Part shown: positions 1-8,110 of the stretch, one piece after another
How positions within the stretch are numbered: the stretch's first letter is position 1
How the letters are laid out: each line of letters begins with the position of its first letter
Source: a virus
Lineage: Duplodnaviria > Heunggongvirae > Uroviricota > Caudoviricetes
DNA length: 8,110 nucleotides
Direction: 5' to 3' (one strand)
IMG/VR virus record: IMGVR_UViG_2740892369_000015
The notes under the pieces: model-generated
What the model saw: only the letters and a program-made list of their open reading frames with translations
The model's database searches: none
What the model was told of the DNA's origin: nothing
Translations under genes and position numbers: made by a program

Positions 1-136
1 AACCGAAAGTCAGTGCTGGCTGTTTTTTTCCTTAATAAGGCATCTGTAACTGAAACAATCCGCATATTGATAATATATTGACAGGCATCATTGCTGTCTG
101 TGAAAAATAAGTCTCTACAAACATATAAGGCCTTTT

Positions 137-177
137 AGCCAGCGTCTTCTTTTTCAGGTCAGTCGCTGGCTTTTTTT
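137..177 (+). terminator. Candidate plus-strand intrinsic terminator (8-bp stem, long loop, T7 run)
   Basis: AGCCAGCG (137-144) pairs with CGCTGGCT (164-171), followed directly by TTTTTTT (171-177). The 19-nt loop is long for a canonical terminator. A similar CTGGCTG+T7 motif at 17-30 looks like the 3' half of a second such hairpin cut by the window edge. Confidence 0.3.
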
Positions 178-178
178 A

Positions 179-2044
179 TTATGCTGCCGGTGCATTTATC
201 TCCAGCATCAGACTTTCTATCTCAACGCCATACGCTGCATTTTTTGTAACATCCGTCAGCGTCAGCGCATTCAGTCCCAGTGTCAGACTGTCTTTTATAA
301 CCTGGAATGCCGGGCCAGCCACTCCATTCAGTTTCGGAGTAACCGTGGCACTGCCGGCGGTGAACACCAGCTCCAGCGTCTGCCAGTCGTTACCGTAATC
401 GCCGAACTCCCCCAGCTTCGTGTTTCCGGCTTTCCTGTGATGCATCAGATTCACTCTGCCGTCAGTGGTCTGAGTGAAGTACGACATCAGGAACGGATTA
501 CCGGTACCCGTCATCGCCACACCATCAGGAACGGGAGCATCCGTATACAGATAAATCCCCAGCCCGAACTGATTGTTGGTCAGCGCGCCTGACAGGCGGA
601 ACTTACAGGTCAGTCTGCCGCCCTGTGTCAGCAGGGTAATTGCGTCATCCACCGGATGCGTCAGGGACCAGGTTTTATTGCTCTGCTTGGCGATCTTAAA
701 TACACCACCCGACAACTGAATTCCGCCGTCCTTAATGGTCCAGCCCTGCGCAGCAGCCTCTCCGGCTGTCGGCAGCAGGGAGATTGTGCGAACGGACGTA
801 TCTGCAGACGGACCCGATGGCGTGTCGCCGCCGGGCGAGGGTTTGATTTCCGGTGCCTTACCACTGATGAAAGCTGAGGTGCGCCCGGCTGCGTTCAGAA
901 TAGCGGTTGCCATACGATCCGGAATAATGCTCCTGCGCGCCCATGAACTGAAATGTGTCGGGCGGTTTGATGATACCTGGTTTCCATTCGTTCTCGATGC
1001 CGCACCGTAATATCCTGATGCCGGAATATCCGGATCTTCTGCCGGTGCGTTAGTGGCGGTATTGACGCCGTTACCGTCTGTCATGAAGGGCACAAAATAA
1101 ACGCCCTCACTCTCCCTGTTTTTATACCCGCCGTACACGGTGTCGTACTGGGTAGCGTATGTATTTTTCCAGTAATACGTCGTGTCACCACAAATCCACG
1201 GCACATTTACAGCACTGCCACCATGACACTGCGCGTTAAACACAGTGAGGTCAGCACGAAACTGCTTCAGCATGGCTGTAAACAGCGCAGGTTGCTGTGC
1301 GTAGGTGGCGGCGCTCATGTCAAACTCTCCCTGCATCCAGCACACCGCCAGCAACACATTTTTCGGGTTCTTCTGTAATGCAGCTTTAGTGCGCGCAATC
1401 AGGTCCTGATATAACGGTTTACCCACACCCCAGCGTGCCGAATCCTGGCTGGCCCCCGTGTCCGCACTGAATGTCCCCTCCGCGCCCTGGGTGAATGCCG
1501 AACCACCACGACAGCATGGTGCCAGCAGGATCCCCGCGTTATTCGGGATATACGGAAGCAGTTTTTTGGCAATATGTAAGCCCTGGCCGACACAGCCGTA
1601 CTGCCCTTTGCTCAGGTCTGCCTTCGGATGATTCAGCGTACTCATATCCTGCACATCATGCAGGCAGTGGTCGGCCGGAATAATATCGTTATATCTGCAG
1701 GCAGCCCCACCCGGCGTCACTGTACTGCGGCGCGCCAGCTGTTTAATGCGCGGATCCGGAGCATCGTATGAATCCGGCAGCGGAAGCCCTTCACCGTAAG
1801 CCATGGCATTGGACTGCCCGGCCAGTACGATGACGTAGTACCAATCCGGCTCAGTTGCACCACTGACCACCACATCACCTTCTGCTGTAATCGCCTGCAT
1901 CAGAGTATAAGGGGTTATGGCCACCGGACTACCAAACGGCTGCCAGCCCTCTTTCAGTTTATGTGTCAGCTTTTCCGCAAGATCTGACGGCGACGCAGCC
2001 CTGACAACATCATAGTGTTTAAATGCCATGGTTCTTTCCACCAT
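179..2044 (-). CDS. nanS: Prophage NanS-p-type sialate (9-O-acetyl-Neu5Ac) O-acetylesterase, SGNH-hydrolase family
   Basis: 621-codon ORF with the SGNH block-I motif GQSN (VLAGQSNAMAYGEG) and the size and position (immediately downstream of the stx-equivalent slot) typical of NanS-p esterases of EHEC prophages. The true start is probably the second Met (ATG 2027-2029, MAFKHYDVV), which is preceded by GGTGGAAAG; the first Met at 2044 has no Shine-Dalgarno. Confidence 0.8.
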   Translation of the reverse strand: MVERTMAFKHYDVVRAASPSDLAEKLTHKLKEGWQPFGSPVAITPYTLMQAITAEGDVVVSGATEPDWYYVIVLAGQSNAMAYGEGLPLPDSYDAPDPRIKQLARRSTVTPGGAACRYNDIIPADHCLHDVQDMSTLNHPKADLSKGQYGCVGQGLHIAKKLLPYIPNNAGILLAPCCRGGSAFTQGAEGTFSADTGASQDSARWGVGKPLYQDLIARTKAALQKNPKNVLLAVCWMQGEFDMSAATYAQQPALFTAMLKQFRADLTVFNAQCHGGSAVNVPWICGDTTYYWKNTYATQYDTVYGGYKNRESEGVYFVPFMTDGNGVNTATNAPAEDPDIPASGYYGAASRTNGNQVSSNRPTHFSSWARRSIIPDRMATAILNAAGRTSAFISGKAPEIKPSPGGDTPSGPSADTSVRTISLLPTAGEAAAQGWTIKDGGIQLSGGVFKIAKQSNKTWSLTHPVDDAITLLTQGGRLTCKFRLSGALTNNQFGLGIYLYTDAPVPDGVAMTGTGNPFLMSYFTQTTDGRVNLMHHRKAGNTKLGEFGDYGNDWQTLELVFTAGSATVTPKLNGVAGPAFQVIKDSLTLGLNALTLTDVTKNAAYGVEIESLMLEINAPAA

Positions 2045-2288
2045 CTGAAAAATAATTCTTTAAAATACCTGACATGTAATACAGAAAAAACACAAAACCA
2101 TACCTTAAATAAAAACCTGATTATCAAGCAGATATGCATGGATAAACTACAAGACGAGATATAAACCACCCTGTATTTAAATAAACAATAAACAACATCA
2201 GAAAAATAATTCTGCTCTATGGTTTAATTCAAAAATATCATTTATACTTTTCAGAACATTACCAGCAAGGCATAAACAAGGAAAGTAA

Positions 2289-2624
2289 ATGAAGTGGATT
2301 GTGATTGATACAGTTATCCAGCCATCATGCGGAATATCTTTTTCAGTCATATGGAGTAAAATAAAATTAATAATCTGGTATCAATCGGATGCTTTCTTAC
2401 CTCCTGAAAGTATATTTACACTGACTCACACAGGCATCATGCTCAATAACAAAGTGCTACCTGTAACCATTTACAACGTAGTACCATTCAATAAAACATT
2501 CTGGAATTTAATCAAAAACAGCCAGGAATGCCCTACAAATACAGATAACGTATTGAATGAATGCTTTAATAACCGTTGCACTCTGCAAATATGTCCTTAT
2601 GGACTAAAACAACAAAGTCCATAA
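2289..2624 (+). CDS. Hypothetical Cys-containing protein (111 aa) in an AT-rich islet, oriented against late transcription
   Basis: ATG preceded by AAGGAAAG at appropriate spacing. A 336-nt open frame is unlikely by chance in such AT-rich DNA. A perfect 12-bp inverted repeat (2594-2605 / 2616-2627, 10-nt loop) spans its stop codon and is followed by GTTTACTC. No homolog recognised by eye. Confidence 0.4.
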
Positions 2625-2642
2625 GGAGTTTACTCACATCTG

Positions 2643-2678
2643 ACAAAATCAATATAAACAGCCCCTCCGGAGAGGGGC
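2643..2678 (-). terminator. Rho-independent terminator for minus-strand transcripts
   Basis: On the minus strand GCCCCTC-TCCG-GAGGGGC (7-bp GC-rich stem, 4-nt loop; plus coordinates 2661-2678) is followed by TGTTTATATTGATTTTGT. The plus strand has no T-tract after the hairpin. Confidence 0.5.
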
Positions 2679-3071
2679 TGGAGAGTGGCGCTATGTGCCA
2701 TTGCATGGTGCCGGGTGCCTCCCGGTGAATTCAGTACCAGCACCTGAATCCGCGATTATCCCATATACCTACTCGCTGATTGCCCCTCCGCACAGGGGGA
2801 TTCACCATGCCAGTTTCTTTTAACAAACTCCCCGCAAACCAGACAACAGTCAACCGCCTGAATTGTGAAGTATTTAAAAATTTCTCCCGCTAACTGATAC
2901 CCGGCTAACAGTCTGGCGTTTTCTTTTTCAGCAACGGGAAAGCAACAACCACCACACCCGCCACCAGTACACAGTCAGCCAGCACTGACATTATCCGGCT
3001 GCTGCAATGCCATTCACAAAAACAGTAAGCAATCACTTTTTACCGTAACAGGTGATAATCCAGATATGTAT

Positions 3072-3398
3072 CTACCCCAGATGAGTAATCCGAAGTTCAT
3101 CCATACCACAGGTCCTGGCTATTCTGTTGTACTCCTGAACAAGAGCAAATAATTCTGAATTAGCAACCATGAACTCATCGCAAACCCTCTGTATAGCATC
3201 ACTATTCAGAAGAATAACGTCTCTTCCCGAAAGACGATCAGGAGTACAGAACAAAACTGTCAAACGGCTGAAGGCCTTTGCTCGTGCTGCATTGACTATA
3301 TCAATACGCTGCCTAAGGATGAAACACCCCGACGCCTCATCAATATTCACTCTACCCACACCATATGAATGATAAATATTTAATACTGAAAAAACCAT
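3072..3398 (-). CDS. Hypothetical protein (108 aa from ATG 3398; the ORF track extends it to a TTG at 3425) in the stx-equivalent cargo position
   Basis: Open frame co-oriented with the late operon, with protein-like composition. There is no strong Shine-Dalgarno. A weak sigma70-like promoter can be drawn upstream on the minus strand (TTGTCA at 3453-3448, 17-nt spacer, AAGTAT at 3430-3425). Not recognisably similar to Stx A or B subunits. Confidence 0.35.
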   Translation of the reverse strand: MVFSVLNIYHSYGVGRVNIDEASGCFILRQRIDIVNAARAKAFSRLTVLFCTPDRLSGRDVILLNSDAIQRVCDEFMVANSELFALVQEYNRIARTCGMDELRITHLG

Positions 3399-3535
3399 TA
3401 GACCGTATAACAAACACTCAATCAATACTTAACAGAACTTTTATTTTTGACAAACATATAATATTTTCAACAATATCCTGAGCCAGGTATATTCCAGTAT
3501 AAGGCTCTGCCGGAAGAAATCTGGAAGAATGAATA

Positions 3536-3612
3536 TGGCGCGTTGTACTGGATTCGAACCAGTGACCGATTGCTTAGAAGGCAATTGCTCTGTCCGGCTG
3601 AGCTAACAACGC
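3536..3612 (-). tRNA. tRNA-Arg (anticodon UCU)
   Basis: Reverse complement is GCGTTGTTAGCTCAGCCGGACAGAGCAATTGCCTTCTAAGCAATCGGTCACTGGTTCGAATCCAGTACAACGCGCCA. It has a 7-bp acceptor stem, D-arm GCTC/GAGC, anticodon stem ATTGC/GCAAT with loop CTTCTAA, T-arm ACTGG-TTCGAAT-CCAGT and an encoded CCA; 77 nt. Confidence 0.85.
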
Positions 3613-3625
3613 ATAATGCAGATAA

Positions 3626-3702
3626 TGGATTGCCATCGGGGACCCGGGCCCCACACAGCCAGTTTCGAAAGCTGACGCTCTCTGCCGATGAGCTAATGGC
3701 GG
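3626..3702 (-). tRNA. Degenerate tRNA-Arg-like gene (anticodon loop TTTCGAA, i.e. UCG), possibly a pseudo-tRNA
   Basis: Reverse complement is CCGCCATTAGCTCATCGGCAGAGAGCGTCAGCTTTCGAAACTGGCTGTGTGGGGCCCGGGTCCCCGATGGCAATCCA, exactly 77 nt in canonical tRNA layout with a good D-arm. The acceptor stem has 2 mismatches, the anticodon stem is weak, and the T-loop CCCGGGT lacks the TTC motif. Confidence 0.5.
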
Positions 3703-3709
3703 TATGTGA

Positions 3710-3785
3710 TGGTGGCCCTTGCTGGATTTGAACCAGCGACCTGGCGATTATGAGTCGCTCGCTCTCACCACTGAGCTAAAGGGCC
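3710..3785 (-). tRNA. tRNA with CAU anticodon (Ile2-lysidine type or Met; ileX/ileZ-like)
   Basis: Reverse complement is GGCCCTTTAGCTCAGTGGTGAGAGCGAGCGACTCATAATCGCCAGGTCGCTGGTTCAAATCCAGCAAGGGCCACCA. Acceptor GGCCCTT/AAGGGCC, anticodon loop CTCATAA, T-loop TTCAAAT, encoded CCA. It closely resembles E. coli ileX as recalled from memory. Confidence 0.85.
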
Positions 3786-3834
3786 GGTAGCAGAATAATA
3801 ATGGTGCGTAATTAATTCTGCAATCCCATCCGTT

Positions 3835-4884
3835 TCAAACGATTAAATCCTGAACTTCCCTGACTGTCTGTTCAAAACGTCCTGTCTCCAGCTCAACACC
3901 AATCGCACAACGCCCCAGTGCCATCGCCGCTTTTACCGTTGAACCTGAACCCATAAAAAAATCTGCAACCAGGTCTCCCGGACGACTGCTCGCGTTGATT
4001 ATCTGCTGCAGCATTTCTGCCGGTTTTTCGCACGGATGTTTCCCTGGATAGTACTGCACCGGTTTATGCGTCCAGACATCGGTGTACGGAACCTGCGCCG
4101 TCACACCGAAATACCGCCGCAAATTTTTATATTCACTCAGCAGTTCCGTATACTGCCGGTTCAGCCCACTGTATGTGCTGACCAGCTGGTGGTGTGGCTT
4201 TTCCAGTTCCCCGCGCTGATGTTTTTCTGCCGCAACACGCGCAAACAACGCCTGCAATTTGTTGTAATTACCCTCGTTCGGTAACTGCCACTGACTGGTA
4301 CCAAACCAGTGCGAAGCCATGTTTTTCTTTCCGGTGGCTTCCGCTATCTGTTTTGACGTTATTCCCAGTGATTTACGCGCATCACGAAAGTAAGAAATCA
4401 GCGGGGCCATGACGTGCTGTTTTAGCTCGCGCCCCTGTGCCACATAGCCATCATCTTTCGGGCGATACGGTCCCTGATAATGTTCTGCAAACAGAATGCG
4501 CTCTGTTGCCGGAAAATACGCCCGCAGACTTTCCTTATTGCACCCGTTCCAGCGTCCGGACGGCTTCGCCCAGATAATATGGTTCAGCACATTAAAGCGC
4601 TCACGCATCATGATTTCGGTGTCAGATGCCAGGCGATGACCAAAGAACAGGTAAAGACTTCCGGCAGGCTTCAGTACCCGCCAGAACTGCGCCAGACACT
4701 GGTCCAGCCATTTCAGGTAATCATCGTCGCCCTCCCACTGGTTATCCCAGCCCTCGGGCTTCACTTTAAAGTATGGCGGGTCTGTGACTATCAGATCGAC
4801 AGAGTTTTCCGGTAAGGTCTGGATAAATTCCAGGCAATCAGCGTTGATTAACTCACAACTGGATATTTTTACAGTATTAATCAT
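3835..4884 (-). CDS. Beta-class DNA methyltransferase (N6-adenine or N4-cytosine), apparently orphan
   Basis: 349 aa with catalytic motif IV DPPY (LIVTDPPYF) near the N-terminus and AdoMet motif I FxGxG (FFMGSGST) near the C-terminus, the order typical of beta-class amino-MTases. No restriction endonuclease ORF is adjacent. The ATG at 4882-4884 overlaps the stop of an upstream frame as ATGA. Confidence 0.85.
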   Translation of the reverse strand: MINTVKISSCELINADCLEFIQTLPENSVDLIVTDPPYFKVKPEGWDNQWEGDDDYLKWLDQCLAQFWRVLKPAGSLYLFFGHRLASDTEIMMRERFNVLNHIIWAKPSGRWNGCNKESLRAYFPATERILFAEHYQGPYRPKDDGYVAQGRELKQHVMAPLISYFRDARKSLGITSKQIAEATGKKNMASHWFGTSQWQLPNEGNYNKLQALFARVAAEKHQRGELEKPHHQLVSTYSGLNRQYTELLSEYKNLRRYFGVTAQVPYTDVWTHKPVQYYPGKHPCEKPAEMLQQIINASSRPGDLVADFFMGSGSTVKAAMALGRCAIGVELETGRFEQTVREVQDLIV

Positions 4885-5351: not shown

Positions 5352-5380
5352 ACATAAAAAAACCCGCATAAAGCGGGTTC
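5352..5380 (-). terminator. Rho-independent terminator immediately downstream of the Q-like gene (tR'-like)
   Basis: On the minus strand AACCCGC-TTTA-TGCGGGTT (plus 5361-5379) is followed by TTTTTTTATG. Position is analogous to lambda tR', which ends the short pR' transcript unless Q-modified. Confidence 0.6.
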
Positions 5381-5463
5381 TTTCAGGTGTCCATGTCTGC
5401 TATTCGCCTCGCGGTATAGCTTTGCGAAGCGTAGCTGGATTGAAACAGTTTATGCGTAAAAAA

Positions 5464-6018
5464 TCAAGACATTTTTTGAGCAAACGATTCTCGCATAGGG
5501 ATGTATAGCGCATATTCAGCAACAGCCAACCAATTAGCAATTCGCTTTTCGCATGTACTAAAACACCATTCCGGGTGCACCTCATTCAACAATTCAGCCA
5601 TTTTGCGTTTACTCATCCCCCGCCCTTCGTACCTTTGCCGCAGGATATCAATCAATCCAGGATAACGTGCAAGCGCTTTACTTATCACCCCATCAATGCG
5701 TAACGCCTCTGCATCAGTACAGTGAGACAACCAGCTCTTCTGTCTGCCAGCGATCATCTCTCGCAAGAATGCTTCCAGCTCTGGTTTATCAATCCCTGAC
5801 TCCCTGATTCTACGCAGGGCTTCATTGATTGCGGTTTTTGTCAGTTTTTTGGATGCCAGCAACTGATTGAACATATTTCCTGGTTTGCCACCACCTATAT
5901 ACGACCAACGCCCCCACATCCGTAATTTCCCCTGGATCCAGACGGCTTCCAGCGTTTTTAGACGTAAATGCTCGCCGCTTTTGCCTGTAATTTCCGGGTA
6001 TATCATATTTACGATCAC
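5464..6018 (-). CDS. Putative late-gene antiterminator (Q-like), assigned mainly by synteny
   Basis: 180-184 aa ORF directly after rusA and directly before a tR'-like terminator and the tRNA cluster, the canonical slot of Q in lambdoid phages. The GTG start at 6018 overlaps the rusA stop; an ATG 12 nt downstream (6004-6006) is an alternative. No lambda-Q zinc-finger signature is seen, so the family is uncertain. Confidence 0.5.
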   Translation of the reverse strand: MIVNMIYPEITGKSGEHLRLKTLEAVWIQGKLRMWGRWSYIGGGKPGNMFNQLLASKKLTKTAINEALRRIRESGIDKPELEAFLREMIAGRQKSWLSHCTDAEALRIDGVISKALARYPGLIDILRQRYEGRGMSKRKMAELLNEVHPEWCFSTCEKRIANWLAVAEYALYIPMRESFAQKMS

Positions 6019-6380
6019 TCACTCTCAATTTTGTAAATCTTCACGCCCAGCCGTCCCCCAGGAACGCGCTGACCGCGCACAATATTGATTTCATCAAACT
6101 GCTCGTCGTCTATGAGAAGTCCGGCATGCGTCAGCGCATCCAGTGGTGCTTTCAGGATATTGTCCAGGTCACGACGACGTTTATCCGGTGGCTCTGCAAT
6201 AATCTTTATCGCCAGCCTTCCGGACAGGTTTAATTTCAGCCGCTGCTGGCGAACAATAAGCGCCACATCACGGCGATAACGCTCACCGGCTTTTGATACA
6301 AAATATGTGCTGCCACGACGTCGCCAGTAAGTGTTCACCGTTGGCGGGTAAGGCAAAACAAATTCTATGCGTTCAGTCAT
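6015..6380 (-). CDS. rusA: Crossover junction endodeoxyribonuclease RusA (Holliday junction resolvase)
   Basis: 121 aa with the RusA hallmarks RRRDLDN, DALT.AGL..DD.Q and GGRL. Size and nin-region position match prophage rusA. Confidence 0.9.
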   Translation of the reverse strand: MTERIEFVLPYPPTVNTYWRRRGSTYFVSKAGERYRRDVALIVRQQRLKLNLSGRLAIKIIAEPPDKRRRDLDNILKAPLDALTHAGLLIDDEQFDEINIVRGQRVPGGRLGVKIYKIESE

Positions 6381-7508
6381 TCATGCTTTCCACTTCAGGA
6401 CACCCGAATTTCTCGCGTGCATTAAAAAACGAATCAGCAACAACAGCTGGCTGCCGTGTTTTTCTTCAAAATCTTTTACCCCGGCGTGTAGTTCGCTATG
6501 GCATTTACGGCACAGCGGAATAACAAACAAATCATCAGCCTTTGTTCCCATCCCTCCCAGTCCATGACCAATGATGTGATGCGGATCATCTGCCTGATTA
6601 CCACACGTCATGCATTTCTGCGTTTTTACCCAACGCGTGTATACAGGCATCTCTTCCCGTCGTGGTTTCTGGCGCTGGAGATACTGAGCCGGTGACTCCG
6701 GATCAACGGCAATGCTTACCACCGTCTTTTCCTGTGGCGGGTTTTGCTGGTGGGCGTGAGGCAGTAGCGCAATATTTTTTGTGCGCTGCTTCAGCATGCT
6801 GGTGGCGGTCTGCTCTCCCGGCACGATGTCGCTCTCGCGGTATACTGAGCGAATTTTTTCCGCGCGTAATCCCAGTGAACGACGTAACACCGTCTCCGGT
6901 AGTGCGTCCGCTACGTTATTTATGGTTGCCCACCAGGATAATTCAGCCAGCGATAATTCCCGCTCCTGCGTGCCATTCATTGCGTGGCGGATGACATCAA
7001 TCATCCATGCTGACAGGTTTTGGTGAGCAAGCTGCCCGAGTGATTCGGAAGTCTGGTTACGCAGCTGGTTGTCGCAGTGCCAGCACAACACCATCGCGCC
7101 GGTACCGTAACGATGTATGACGGTTTCACTGTGATGGTAGTCACCATGAGGCCACTGGCAGGATTTAATGTGGCGTAACAGCCAGTCAGACAATGCACCA
7201 GCACCACCAGCAGCACGAATCACCCGCTCATCGCTGAAAAATGGCAGTAATGATTTATCCTCCGCCAGCGGCTGGCGAACAGCAGGAACGACTCCGGACG
7301 GCAGACCGCGCATGCTTTTCGGTTCCGGCTCCACCAGAACTCGAGGGTTATGAAATACCTGCATGGATTCACGGCCCGGTTTTAGCACCACCAGCCCAAG
7401 TTCCGGTACCGGAACAGGTCGAAGTAATACCCGCACGTTACCTCCAGATGCGTTGCTGGAATGTGCGGGACGGACGCGGTGGGCGTTCGGAATAAGGGAG
7501 CCTGACAT
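6381..7508 (-). CDS. DUF968 family protein (YdfU-like) with C-terminal HNH/zinc-binding-like motif
   Basis: C-terminal HHIIGHGLGG...PLCRKCHSELH signature of DUF968 prophage proteins, and typical position upstream of rusA. The annotated start overlaps the upstream ORF by 71 nt; the real start may be an internal Met (for example ATG 7362-7364). Confidence 0.8.
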   Translation of the reverse strand: MSGSLIPNAHRVRPAHSSNASGGNVRVLLRPVPVPELGLVVLKPGRESMQVFHNPRVLVEPEPKSMRGLPSGVVPAVRQPLAEDKSLLPFFSDERVIRAAGGAGALSDWLLRHIKSCQWPHGDYHHSETVIHRYGTGAMVLCWHCDNQLRNQTSESLGQLAHQNLSAWMIDVIRHAMNGTQERELSLAELSWWATINNVADALPETVLRRSLGLRAEKIRSVYRESDIVPGEQTATSMLKQRTKNIALLPHAHQQNPPQEKTVVSIAVDPESPAQYLQRQKPRREEMPVYTRWVKTQKCMTCGNQADDPHHIIGHGLGGMGTKADDLFVIPLCRKCHSELHAGVKDFEEKHGSQLLLLIRFLMHARNSGVLKWKA

Positions 7509-7780: not shown

Positions 7781-7809
7781 GGAAAAAACAAAACCCGCCG
7801 AAGCGGGTT
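7781..7809 (-). terminator. Rho-independent terminator downstream of hokD
   Basis: On the minus strand AACCCGC-TTCG-GCGGGTT (plus 7792-7809) is followed by TTGTTTTTTCC. Confidence 0.55.
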
Positions 7810-7877
7810 AAGTGCGGGTGCGTTGAGGATGCCTGACTCATCAGAGGTGGCGAGGGATTTCTCCCTCGCCTGGTCTC

Positions 7878-8033
7878 TTACTCCTCAGGTTCGTAAGCTG
7901 TGAAGACAGCGACCTCCGTCTGGCCGGTTCGGATTCGTACCTCGCAGAGGTCTTTCCTCGTTACCAGTGCCGTCACTATGACGGTTAAACAGATGACGAT
8001 CAGGGCGATTAACATCGCCTTTTGCTGCTTCAT
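7878..8033 (-). CDS. hokD: Hok-family type I toxin, HokD/RelF-like (51 aa)
   Basis: Translation MKQQKAMLIALIVICLTVIVTALVTRKDLCEVRIRTGQTEVAVFTAYEPEE has the Hok/Gef transmembrane and LTRK..LCE.R....EVA.F.AYE signature. ATG at 8031-8033 is preceded by AAGGAG with a 9-nt spacer. The ORF-track extension to GTG 8072 is probably not used. Confidence 0.9.
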   Translation of the reverse strand: MKQQKAMLIALIVICLTVIVTALVTRKDLCEVRIRTGQTEVAVFTAYEPEE

Positions 8034-8110
8034 AGCCTGCTTCTCCTTGTCAACGCAAAGCAGAAGTGTCACCTTCGGTGCGAAACAGAGATGTCATGCT
8101 TTGGTTCAGA

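Follow-up and report, generated by a model that had tools for sequence, protein, structure and literature searches.

IraL was demonstrated in UPEC CFT073 and in S. sonnei to be an RssB anti-adaptor that stabilises RpoS, and the promoter of iraL, its transcription start site (TSS) and the 5'-RACE end of its mRNA have already been published (PMC4045071). In Stx phages, convergent sRNAs lie 3' of stx2B, and stx-negative prophages were found to be organised alike; the region was described as a moron site carrying sRNA genes both in Sp5 and in stx-negative Sakai prophages (Tree et al. 2014, PMC4104026). STnc100 lies 75 nt past stx2B and overlaps the Hfq-bound EcOnc27 (PMC12370729, PMC12711010), and homologues that bind Hfq have been described in EHEC and EPEC (PMC12711010, PMC8550237).

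Here we analysed the equivalent position in a stretch of 8,110 nucleotides of caudoviral DNA (IMG/VR record IMGVR_UViG_2740892369_000015), referred to below as the window. Its phage late operon lies on the minus strand, and the slot between the late-leader tRNAs and nanS-p occupies 2045-3535. An initial annotation of this slot, made from the letters alone, had recognised it as a moron site, in agreement with the published description, and had regarded it as holding uncharacterised content instead of stxAB. With a probability of about 0.85, the slot is the known iraL locus of Qin/lambdoid-type prophages, with three self-contained moron units arranged between the late-leader tRNAs and nanS-p. 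We document below the identities, architecture and frequency of its parts.

Layout and frequency of the slot

Upstream of the slot, the late operon contains a DUF1133/Q-like gene (5464-6018; Pfam), a DNA methylase gene (3835-4884) and the late-leader tRNAs, all on the minus strand. The first tRNA (3710-3785) has the anticodon CAT and was assigned as tRNA-Ile2 (tRNA-Ile in RefSeq; ARAGORN; Rfam 72.5 bits), the middle one is degenerate, and tRNA-Arg (TCT; 3536-3612; ARAGORN; Rfam tRNA 70 bits) forms the upstream boundary of the slot. The downstream boundary is a minus-strand gene (179-2044) for a NanS-p type sialate O-acetylesterase with DUF1737, SASA and DUF6645 (Pfam), the product of which is named 'SASA family carbohydrate esterase' in RefSeq. 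The Q-like gene, the tRNAs and the esterase gene are the flanks that the initial annotation had described. Its view of the slot as the stx-equivalent position was also borne out, in that Stx1 phage 75/02 has stxAB between Q and the same STnc100 sRNA, followed by nanS-p. In line with the initial annotation, none of the five slot ORFs of 42-117 aa matched a toxin family in Pfam, NCBIfam or PHROGs, and the window's ORF list contains no stxA/stxB-type ORF between the tRNAs and the sRNA.

The description of the content as uncharacterised was mostly wrong, however: the 111-aa ORF corresponds to IraL, and the hairpin-rich segment contains a member of a curated Rfam sRNA family. The STnc100-family sRNA also follows stxB in the Stx1 phage and is shared backbone, not an stx replacement. 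The slot is 100% identical to that of E. coli 97-3250. Of 5426 complete E. coli genomes, 863 carry at least 80% of it, and it is largely annotated in RefSeq (IraM, DUF3927 and hypothetical protein). For the most part, it is thus the common, annotated segment that the initial annotation had set against its own proposal. Because iraL, a known sRNA family, a tiny membrane-protein gene and one widespread unannotated gene of 92 residues fill the slot, it is mostly ordinary and explained; only DUF3927 and the 92-residue gene (orf92) remain uncharacterised, and orf92 is the sole, modest novelty in content that is mostly already known. The available annotation nevertheless contains errors: PGAP labels IraL as 'IraM' (placing that name on the 111-aa ORF and not on the 117-aa ORF), skips orf92, and calls a pseudo-ORF antisense to the STnc100-family sRNA, which is spurious.

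Decayed remnants of cargo may persist between conserved phage modules without present function, and signs of decay near the slot, such as the degenerate middle tRNA, the truncated nanS-p of the CFT073 and 640R1 versions, the PGAP pseudo-ORF and a deletion in the iraL promoter box read as -35, would suit such an inert filler. We regard this as very unlikely, given that IraL is intact and identical to a protein that stabilises RpoS, that purifying selection acts on orf92 between clades that are 60% identical, that the sRNA is full length against its family model, and that hundreds of genomes retain the slot with at least 95% identity. Anti-phage defence or superinfection exclusion is more improbable still. 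Lysogen-expressed morons are known from this hotspot, DUF3927 and orf92 are small and have no known function, and the PHROGs family of DUF3927 (phrog_1470) is labelled 'TciB-like inhibition of cell division or resistance to colicin'. Against this, PADLOC defence models gave no match for orf92 or IraL and only a chance-level match for DUF3927 (E 0.025), and the slot has no enzymatic or sensor domain. Of the fitness, defence or regulatory cargo envisaged initially, the regulatory and fitness parts stand, and the defence part is very unlikely. The known iraL locus remains the preferred reading, with IraL, a characterised RpoS stabiliser, accounting for a third of the slot and a curated sRNA family that is also found behind stx accounting for another part.

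The convergent iraL gene

The AT-rich convergent ORF of 111 aa noted initially was confirmed at 2289-2624 on the plus strand (GC 0.345), where it converges with the late operon. Its translation is 100% identical to IraL of UPEC CFT073 (WP_000871291.1), matches NCBIfam NF007393 with 162 bits (cutoff 121) over residues 1-110 of 111, and matches the solved IraM structure PDB 8twd (E 9e-32). Judged by sequence, this ORF is IraL, a member of the IraM/IraL family of RssB anti-adaptors and the same as the characterised CFT073 protein, and its RssB/RpoS function would be the one described for that protein (PMC4045071).

The putative iraL promoter and 5' untranslated region (2220-2288, plus strand) include a -10 element TATACT (2243-2248), a TSS-equivalent A at 2256 and the Shine-Dalgarno sequence AAGGAAAG. 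The published 5'-RACE end (PMC4045071) aligns with the window from 2256 onward. The region from -100 to +33 is identical to that of CFT073 at 127 of 133 positions and TATACT is kept; the TTTACA box, read as a putative -35, is 1 bp shorter in the window than in CFT073. Together with its promoter, iraL was found in 1446 of 5426 complete E. coli genomes. A perfect 12-bp inverted repeat, TCCTTATGGACT-N10-AGTCCATAAGGA (2594-2627), was read from the sequence across the iraL stop codon.

In K-12, iraM is reported to be PhoP-dependent. A K-12-type iraM promoter was rejected for iraL on the ground that the K-12 homology is confined to the coding sequence, and the TAAACA-A-TAAACA repeat seen upstream of iraL has the wrong spacing for a canonical PhoP box. 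Similarity between K-12 iraM and iraL ends at the borders of the coding sequence, and promoter and regulation therefore differ.

An STnc100-family sRNA as shared backbone

The initial annotation had described a segment of about 430 bp, poor in ORFs and rich in hairpins, that ends in a minus-strand terminator. Both the segment and the terminator (2680-2659) were found, but the segment is not empty: it holds the DUF3927 gene and an sRNA gene of 160-190 nt. The latter was placed at 2650-2839 on the minus strand on the basis of Rfam, alignment, consensus structure and terminator. It matches the STnc100 family (Rfam RF02076) with 132.4 bits (gathering 47; E 8.8e-30) over model positions 1-206 of 206, and its minimum free energy is -69.5 kcal/mol (z -2.96). 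The mature sRNA probably spans 2810 to about 2650, or some 160-190 nt. By alignment, it consists of a conserved body (2810-2702) shut by the stem GCAUGGUG...CACCAUGC, a hypervariable part (2701-2681), and a terminator stem (2680-2659) with its T-tract. Seven of the 9 bp in the terminator stem are G-C pairs, and TTTATATTGA comes directly after it. Its T-tract is interrupted (CTGTTTATATTG) compared with other copies, and termination and Hfq binding to the 3' end could therefore be weaker here than in those copies. Most stems are invariant, so the structure has modest support from covariation.

The sRNA appears to have a weak extended -10 promoter of its own. The candidate (2817-2846, minus strand) combines TTGTCT (2846-2841), an 18-nt spacer and TGn-TAAAAG (2825-2817). 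A consensus promoter scan did not pick up this proposed promoter; its boxes are kept across divergent copies, and the RNA-seq 5' end of PasD2 aligns to window position 2810. The seed of the sRNA is probably a single-stranded, hypervariable part some 25 nt long.

STnc100 copies were present in every slot version examined and occupy the same late-region position in eight other loci, including an Stx1 phage; in phage 75/02, the sRNA directly follows stxB and converges on an AgvB-type RNA. When the window was searched with the covariance models of AgvB and AsxR (RF02702/RF02703), nothing matched up to an E of 1, whereas the Stx1 phage locus has a match of 56.6 bits. The sRNA has a relative in PasD, which is abundant in EPEC, depends on Hfq and adjoins an esterase gene. 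Identity with PasD itself was rejected: the 5' body alone aligns, the 3' half and the UGUGAG seed differ, and the PasD2 locus falls below the STnc100 gathering level.

By analogy with EcOnc27/sRNA103 and PasD, the sRNA may be made abundantly in the lysogen, make contact with Hfq and pair with mRNAs of both host and island. It could instead be a cis element of the late operon (a terminator or insulator, or a processing or stability structure between cargo and nanS-p), which we consider unlikely. The segment always lies within the late transcript between cargo and nanS-p, its body is near-invariant with little covariation, pairing of its variable region with the translation-initiation regions of iraL, orf92, DUF3927 and nanS-p did not exceed that of shuffled controls, and no function has been proven for STnc100 itself (PMC12370729), all of which would be compatible with a role in cis. 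Its homologues, on the other hand, accumulate to high levels in uninduced cells as discrete RNAs about 170 nt long; PasD occurs in Hfq-mediated chimeras with many mRNAs; EcOnc27 is crosslinked to Hfq, and its overexpression alters fimZ and espA transcript levels; and a seed would be expected to show just such a hypervariable stretch next to the terminator. These points argue for a trans-acting sRNA.

The overlooked orf92 and the DUF3927 gene

The minus-strand ORF of 108-117 aa named initially is present at 3072-3425 (108 aa from ATG 3398 and 117 aa from TTG 3425), but these longer forms are mechanical, and the most likely start is GTG 3350, which yields a gene of 92 aa (orf92; 3072-3350, minus strand). 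The ORF matches phrog_2873 over profile positions 1-108 of 108 (E 1.8e-69); no family was found for it in Pfam or NCBIfam, and a sequence search against solved structures gave nothing. The GTG at 3350 is conserved, whereas the 25 N-terminal codons of the 117-aa ORF are not and contain stop codons in a homologous locus. Within clades, copies of orf92 differ too little for their polymorphism to be informative. Of 5426 complete E. coli genomes, 1185 contain orf92.

The sequence comparisons indicate that orf92 is a real gene, which probably starts at GTG 3350. It is quite unlikely that the frame is incidental and that its conservation reflects a non-coding role, for instance as leader, processing site or RNA element past the tRNAs. 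PGAP leaves the position blank in 24 of 25 sampled RefSeq records, and the missing families, the lack of a clear Shine-Dalgarno sequence before GTG 3350 and the tiny size of the protein family (20 representatives among 1.84 billion proteins) would all agree with such a role. However, this frame is the only one open in both clades, the other five having 2-11 stops; the core is 68% identical and gapless over 279 nt, while its flanks are about 47% identical or unalignable; differences by codon position are 23/23/43 (third-position bias, p = 0.011); and dN/dS is 0.26 in the core versus 0.75 in the 24 codons upstream. Remote relatives (91-106 aa) begin at the core, those in other hosts keep length and start at 21-39% identity, and AF2 gave a confident model, a helical hairpin with pLDDT 88. 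A protein-coding orf92 is accordingly retained.

The DUF3927 gene (2905-3036, minus strand) encodes a small single-pass membrane protein of 43 aa from GTG 3036; the RefSeq form has 28 aa (2905-2991). It matches Pfam PF13064 with 90.2 bits (cutoff 25) over profile positions 7-53 of 53. A universal linkage of orf92 with DUF3927 found no support, since the 45-aa ORF past a divergent orf92 in L009 is not DUF3927 and a Citrobacter locus lacks DUF3927. Two anti-adaptor relationships of orf92 were rejected as well: hhalign gave 0.06% with 2 aligned columns against K-12 IraP, a coiled-coil anti-adaptor, and a probability below 1% against IraL.

More speculatively, and with low expectation, orf92 might be a lysogen-expressed small protein, overlooked by annotation in about one-fifth of E. 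coli genomes, whose family is confined to the moron slot before the lysis genes of enterobacterial prophages. Its predicted rigid two-helix hairpin, with conserved loop and flanking residues AFSRLTVLFCTPDR, might bind and modulate a host protein, and orf92 could then regulate proteolysis or stress signalling in a new way, together with IraL and the sRNA.

Proposed operation and comparison with known systems

In the model that we propose, the first moron unit would be orf92 with the DUF3927 mini membrane protein, on the minus strand in the sense of the late operon; the second, also on the minus strand, would be the structured STnc100-family sRNA with its own weak promoter and Rho-independent terminator; and the third would be the convergent plus-strand iraL, whose own sigma-70 promoter would drive its transcription in the lysogen. 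[quoted passage not shown] Upon induction, Q-modified RNA polymerase starting at PR' would pass through the tRNAs, orf92, DUF3927 and the sRNA terminator, and the same read-through would continue antisense over iraL into nanS-p and the lysis genes. The conserved sRNA body may serve as a homology anchor, with a recombination junction at the CACCGGGAGGCACCCGGCACCATGC core, and the cargo region would comprise two sub-slots: one upstream of the sRNA, holding stxAB in Stx phages and orf92-DUF3927 here, and a convergent one downstream, holding AgvB/AsxR-type anti-sRNAs in Stx phages and iraL here. Such a map would describe the stx-equivalent cargo region cleanly and make the sRNA body the anchor at which prophages exchange cargo.

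The lambdoid prophage of the CFT073 potB island (Hryckowian et al. 2014, PMC4045071) has the same order as the window, with tRNAs, orf92, DUF3927, STnc100, inverted iraL, nanS-p and holin, and is 97.6% identical to it in nucleotides across 3824..1810. It differs in that all three tRNAs are intact, an IS200 follows Q and nanS-p is truncated, as it also is in the 640R1 version; in the window, the middle tRNA is degenerate, a methylase gene is present and nanS-p is full length.

K-12 IraM (b1160; 8twd) belongs to the same family as IraL, with 60% identity and 66 of 107 identical residues, and both are RssB anti-adaptors that adjoin prophage DNA.

The EPEC E2348/69 prophage PP2, with its PasD2/PasA region (Pearl Mizrahi et al. 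2021; Zhu, Shabalina and Storz 2026 preprint), shares the order Q, cargo, DUF3927, structured sRNA and esterase. Window 2..2022 matches its esterase region with 95% identity, and the 5' end of PasD2 aligns with GCATGG at window 2810. PasD2, however, stays under the STnc100 gathering score and has a distinct 3' half and seed (UGUGAG), and PP2 lacks iraL and orf92 and carries a gene for a hypothetical protein of 247 aa in the cargo position.

Stx phages of the Sp5/933W type, for which Stx1 phage 75/02 was compared, share with the window a backbone of Q, cargo, STnc100/EcOnc27, a convergent gene, nanS-p and lysis genes. In a phage search, the sRNA segment was the only part of the slot that Stx phages share, and the sRNA body of phage 75/02 shows 86% identity across window 2877..2702, while the 3' variable stretch and the terminator diverge past the junction at 2702. 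The window has orf92-DUF3927 where these phages have stxAB, and the protein gene iraL where they have an AgvB/AsxR-type anti-sRNA.

Contents and frequency of the slot

The window is the late region of a Qin/lambdoid-type prophage read on the minus strand, with hokD (7878-8072), a DUF968 gene (6381-7508), rusA (6015-6380), a Q-like gene encoding a DUF1133 protein with a Phage_antitermQ match (5464-6018), a DNA methylase gene (3835-4884), tRNA-Ile2(CAT) (3710-3785), tRNA-Arg(TCT) (3536-3612) and the gene for the NanS-p esterase (DUF1737-SASA-DUF6645, 179-2044). In the 1.5-kb slot between the tRNAs and nanS-p (2045-3535), where Stx phages carry stxAB, the initial annotation had listed a 108/117-aa minus-strand ORF, a terminator-ended structured stretch and a convergent AT-rich 111-aa ORF. 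All of these features are present, and the ORF list and family scans confirmed that no slot ORF is toxin-like. The idea of regulatory cargo proved right, as the slot holds IraL and an STnc100-family sRNA; the description of the content as uncharacterised was mostly wrong, because IraL and the STnc100 sRNA are already known. The observation is thus confirmed and the interpretation partly supported: the slot content is mostly known already. The remaining interest lies in the minus-strand gene that we call orf92 and in the targets of the window sRNA variant, orf92 being a widespread small gene that annotation pipelines have missed.

By Megablast, the slot was 100% identical in E. coli strain 97-3250, at least 80% covered in 863 of 5426 complete E. 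coli genomes, and represented in some part in 2860 of them. With this frequency and a known gene, iraL, among its ORFs, the segment largely is what would have spoken against novel cargo, namely a common and annotated one. RefSeq labels in the slot are "anti-adapter protein IraM", "DUF3927 family protein" and a pseudo "hypothetical protein". No record among the deposited phages covers at least 80% of the slot, and sharing with Stx phages was limited to query ~650-880 (window 2654-2884).

Several RNA-like elements were observed in the flanks. A third, degenerate tRNA, not called by ARAGORN, sits between the two that were called (3629-3702, minus; Rfam tRNA 22 bits, threshold 29). It aligns with an intact tRNA annotated as tRNA-Arg (anticodon read as UCG) in the prophage of the uropathogenic strain CFT073 and so has the look of a decayed version of it. 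IsrK, a Salmonella Gifsy-1 sRNA with a gathering score of 50 bits, gave two weak sub-threshold matches: one directly downstream of the Q-like gene (5357-5430, minus, 21.6 bits), where a PR'-tR' leader RNA (6S/StxS-like) is expected, and one just downstream of hokD (7788-7869, minus, 27.8 bits).

IraL and the STnc100-family sRNA

The 111-aa ORF (2289-2624, plus strand, GC 0.345), convergent with the late operon, is IraL. It matched NCBIfam NF007393 (162 bits, cutoff 121) and the solved IraM structure 8twd (E 9e-32), and shares 66 of 107 residues with K-12 IraM, the nucleotide similarity ending at the CDS borders. IraL was described from CFT073 by Hryckowian et al. 2014 as a paralogue of IraM (58.9% identity) with its own sigma-70 promoter and a TSS mapped by 5' RACE (PMC4045071). 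The CFT073 "IraM" accession, WP_000871291.1, is the one annotated in 97-3250, and its translation is identical to the window ORF. RefSeq therefore names as IraM a protein identical to a separately characterised paralogue, and the shared name masks the distinction between the two in regulation and RssB binding.

From window 2256 on, the sequence matches the published 5' end of iraL mRNA (ACATCACCAGCAAGGCATAAACAAGGAAACCA), the -10 box TATACT (2243-2248) lies before it, and positions -100 to +33 are 127/133 identical to CFT073. Relative to CFT073, one base is missing from the TTTACA box, read as the -35 element; expression from iraL alleles with a -35 mutation was reported as not known (PMC4045071). 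iraL with its promoter occurs in 1446 of the 5426 genomes. From the literature on the identical protein, IraL would sequester RssB and so stabilise RpoS in growing cells, with the promoter deletion as a caveat for this allele. A perfect 12-bp inverted repeat, TCCTTATGGACT-N10-AGTCCATAAGGA (2594-2627), spans the iraL stop codon. No T-tract terminator belongs to iraL on the plus strand, and its transcripts may therefore run on antisense into the sRNA gene.

The segment called ORF-poor and hairpin-rich consists of two parts; it is indeed structured and ends in a terminator (2680-2659, minus), but a DUF3927 mini-gene lies within it (2905-3036, minus; 43 aa from GTG, 28 aa in one RefSeq call), matching Pfam DUF3927 at 90 bits and also phrog_1470 ("TciB-like"). 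The second part (2650-2839, minus) matches Rfam STnc100 over the full model length (132.4 bits, gathering score 47, E 8.8e-30). Its predicted fold has a closing stem, GCAUGGUG...CACCAUGC, around three hairpins, followed by a single-stranded stretch and the terminator (MFE -69.5 kcal/mol, z -2.96). Alignment of eight versions showed a nearly invariant body and a hypervariable segment of ~25 nt (2701-2681) before the terminator. Upstream of 2810, the conserved TTGTCT-N18-TGn-TAAAAG, which a consensus promoter scan did not list, is a candidate promoter from which the sRNA would be fired.

STnc100 sits 75 nt past stx2B (PMC12370729) and overlaps the Hfq-crosslinked sRNA EcOnc27/sRNA103, overexpression of which raised fimZ and espA transcripts (PMC12711010). 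Its structure relates it to PasD, an sRNA abundant in EPEC that adjoins an esterase gene and forms Hfq-mediated chimeras with many mRNAs (preprint 10.64898/2026.05.13.724894; PMC8550237). In the alignment, the 5' end of PasD2 as seen by RNA-seq falls on the G of GCATGG, at window 2810. Identification of the window sRNA as PasD was rejected, as its 3' half and seed differ and the PasD2 locus falls below the STnc100 threshold. By homology, the window sRNA would be expressed in the lysogen, contact Hfq and base-pair through its variable stretch, with the interrupted T-tract of this copy as a caveat. Several related prophage loci carry two STnc100 copies per late region, their variable stretches differing (L003, 1344-1556 and 4650-4839; L007, 4569-4764 and 4829-4935; L011, 3665-3858 and 4134-4322). 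PGAP/RefSeq places a partial pseudo "hypothetical protein" at 2695-2820 (plus), with calls at the corresponding position in CFT073 and EPEC E2348/69; it has no family support and lies antisense to the sRNA body, so that a false call, prompted by the lack of an sRNA annotation, is likely.

The unannotated gene orf92

The long minus-strand ORF (3072-3398, 108 aa, or 3072-3425, 117 aa) is a real, unannotated gene, which most probably spans 3072-3350 (92 aa from GTG). It matched phrog_2873 over its full length (E 1.8e-69); in a large protein database its relatives made up only 23 clusters, which are confined to E. coli and Shigella and fall into two clades ~60% identical. The 279-nt core aligned between clades without gaps at 68% identity, whereas the flanks aligned at ~47% with gaps. 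Frame +0 is the only one open in both clades, interclade differences by codon position were 23/23/43 (p = 0.011), and dN/dS was 0.26 in the core versus 0.75 in the 24 codons upstream. The GTG at 3350 is conserved between clades, and the upstream part of the frame contains stop codons in L007.

When 1.84 billion representatives were searched exhaustively with a profile, only 20 proteins belonged to the family. Remote relatives (91-106 aa) begin at the core, and one is encoded in a prophage of Citrobacter braakii, with tRNAs on one side and TerB-like/holin/M15 endolysin/HNH genes on the other. At 95% identity or more, orf92 occurs in 1185 of the 5426 genomes; its position was without annotation in 24 of 25 sampled RefSeq records, the 25th, a partial match, listing a "hypothetical protein". 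Among deposited phages it was found in mEp460_ev081 only, there too without annotation. In the divergent clade, which occupies the same slot in other prophages, the orf92 homologue follows an AraC-family regulator gene (HTH_18, 241 aa; L007 3186-3911, L009 164-889, L003 1933-2658), presumably resembling the prophage-encoded PatE/Psr regulators of EHEC.

With a wider alignment, AF2 gave a confident model (pLDDT 88, pTM 0.75) of an antiparallel two-helix hairpin (H3-33, H50-81) with a conserved TPDR loop between the helices. Fold and profile comparison of orf92 returned generic hairpins only and did not connect it with IraP, IraL or any defence protein. A small modulator binding a host protein is the most plausible guess, and only a guess.

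Relation to Stx and other prophages

Pairwise BLAST revealed mosaic relationships that change abruptly at window ~2702, within the sRNA body. In phage mEp460 the match covers 3824..2702 (96%) and gives way to a TolA-like gene; in Stx1 phage 75/02 it covers 2877..2702, beginning 45 nt past stxB, and the sRNA there is convergent with an AgvB-type anti-sRNA ahead of nanS-p; in phage 640R1 it covers 2868..1810, that is, the sRNA, iraL and the nanS-p start. From these alignments, the Stx-equivalent slot, correctly positioned in the initial annotation as 75/02 illustrates, is therefore two sub-slots around a conserved sRNA rather than one. The breakpoint is common to several phages and adjoins a 28-nt core (2729-2702) whose conservation is 100% even where the rest of the locus is ~70% identical, which suggests that the sRNA body may be an anchor at which recombination exchanges the cargo downstream (iraL, the TolA-like gene or AgvB). 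After induction, Q-modified polymerase would cross the whole slot into nanS-p, and this read-through would hence run antisense over iraL.

The CFT073 prophage is likewise lambdoid and aligns with window 3824..1810 at 97.6%, in the order Q, IS200, three tRNAs, DUF3927, pseudo-ORF, inverted "IraM", truncated DUF1737 gene and holin. The E2348/69 prophage PP2 has Q, a hypothetical gene, DUF3927, PasD2, esterase and PasA. PasA-type sRNA lies there antisense between the esterase and holin genes, in a region 95% identical to the window; ~29 nt at window 1-29 (plus) match the 3' end of such an sRNA (EcOnc51/52 homologue), the remainder falling outside the window. Convergent sRNAs at the moron site were already described in Sp5 and stx-negative Sakai prophages (Tree et al. 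2014); AgvB/AsxR had no match anywhere in the window. The upstream sub-slot holds stxAB in Stx phages, which share with the slot only the sRNA segment, orf92-DUF3927 in the window, and an AraC-type regulator with an orf92 homologue in L007 and L009, whereas the downstream, convergent sub-slot holds AgvB/AsxR in Stx phages and iraL in the window.
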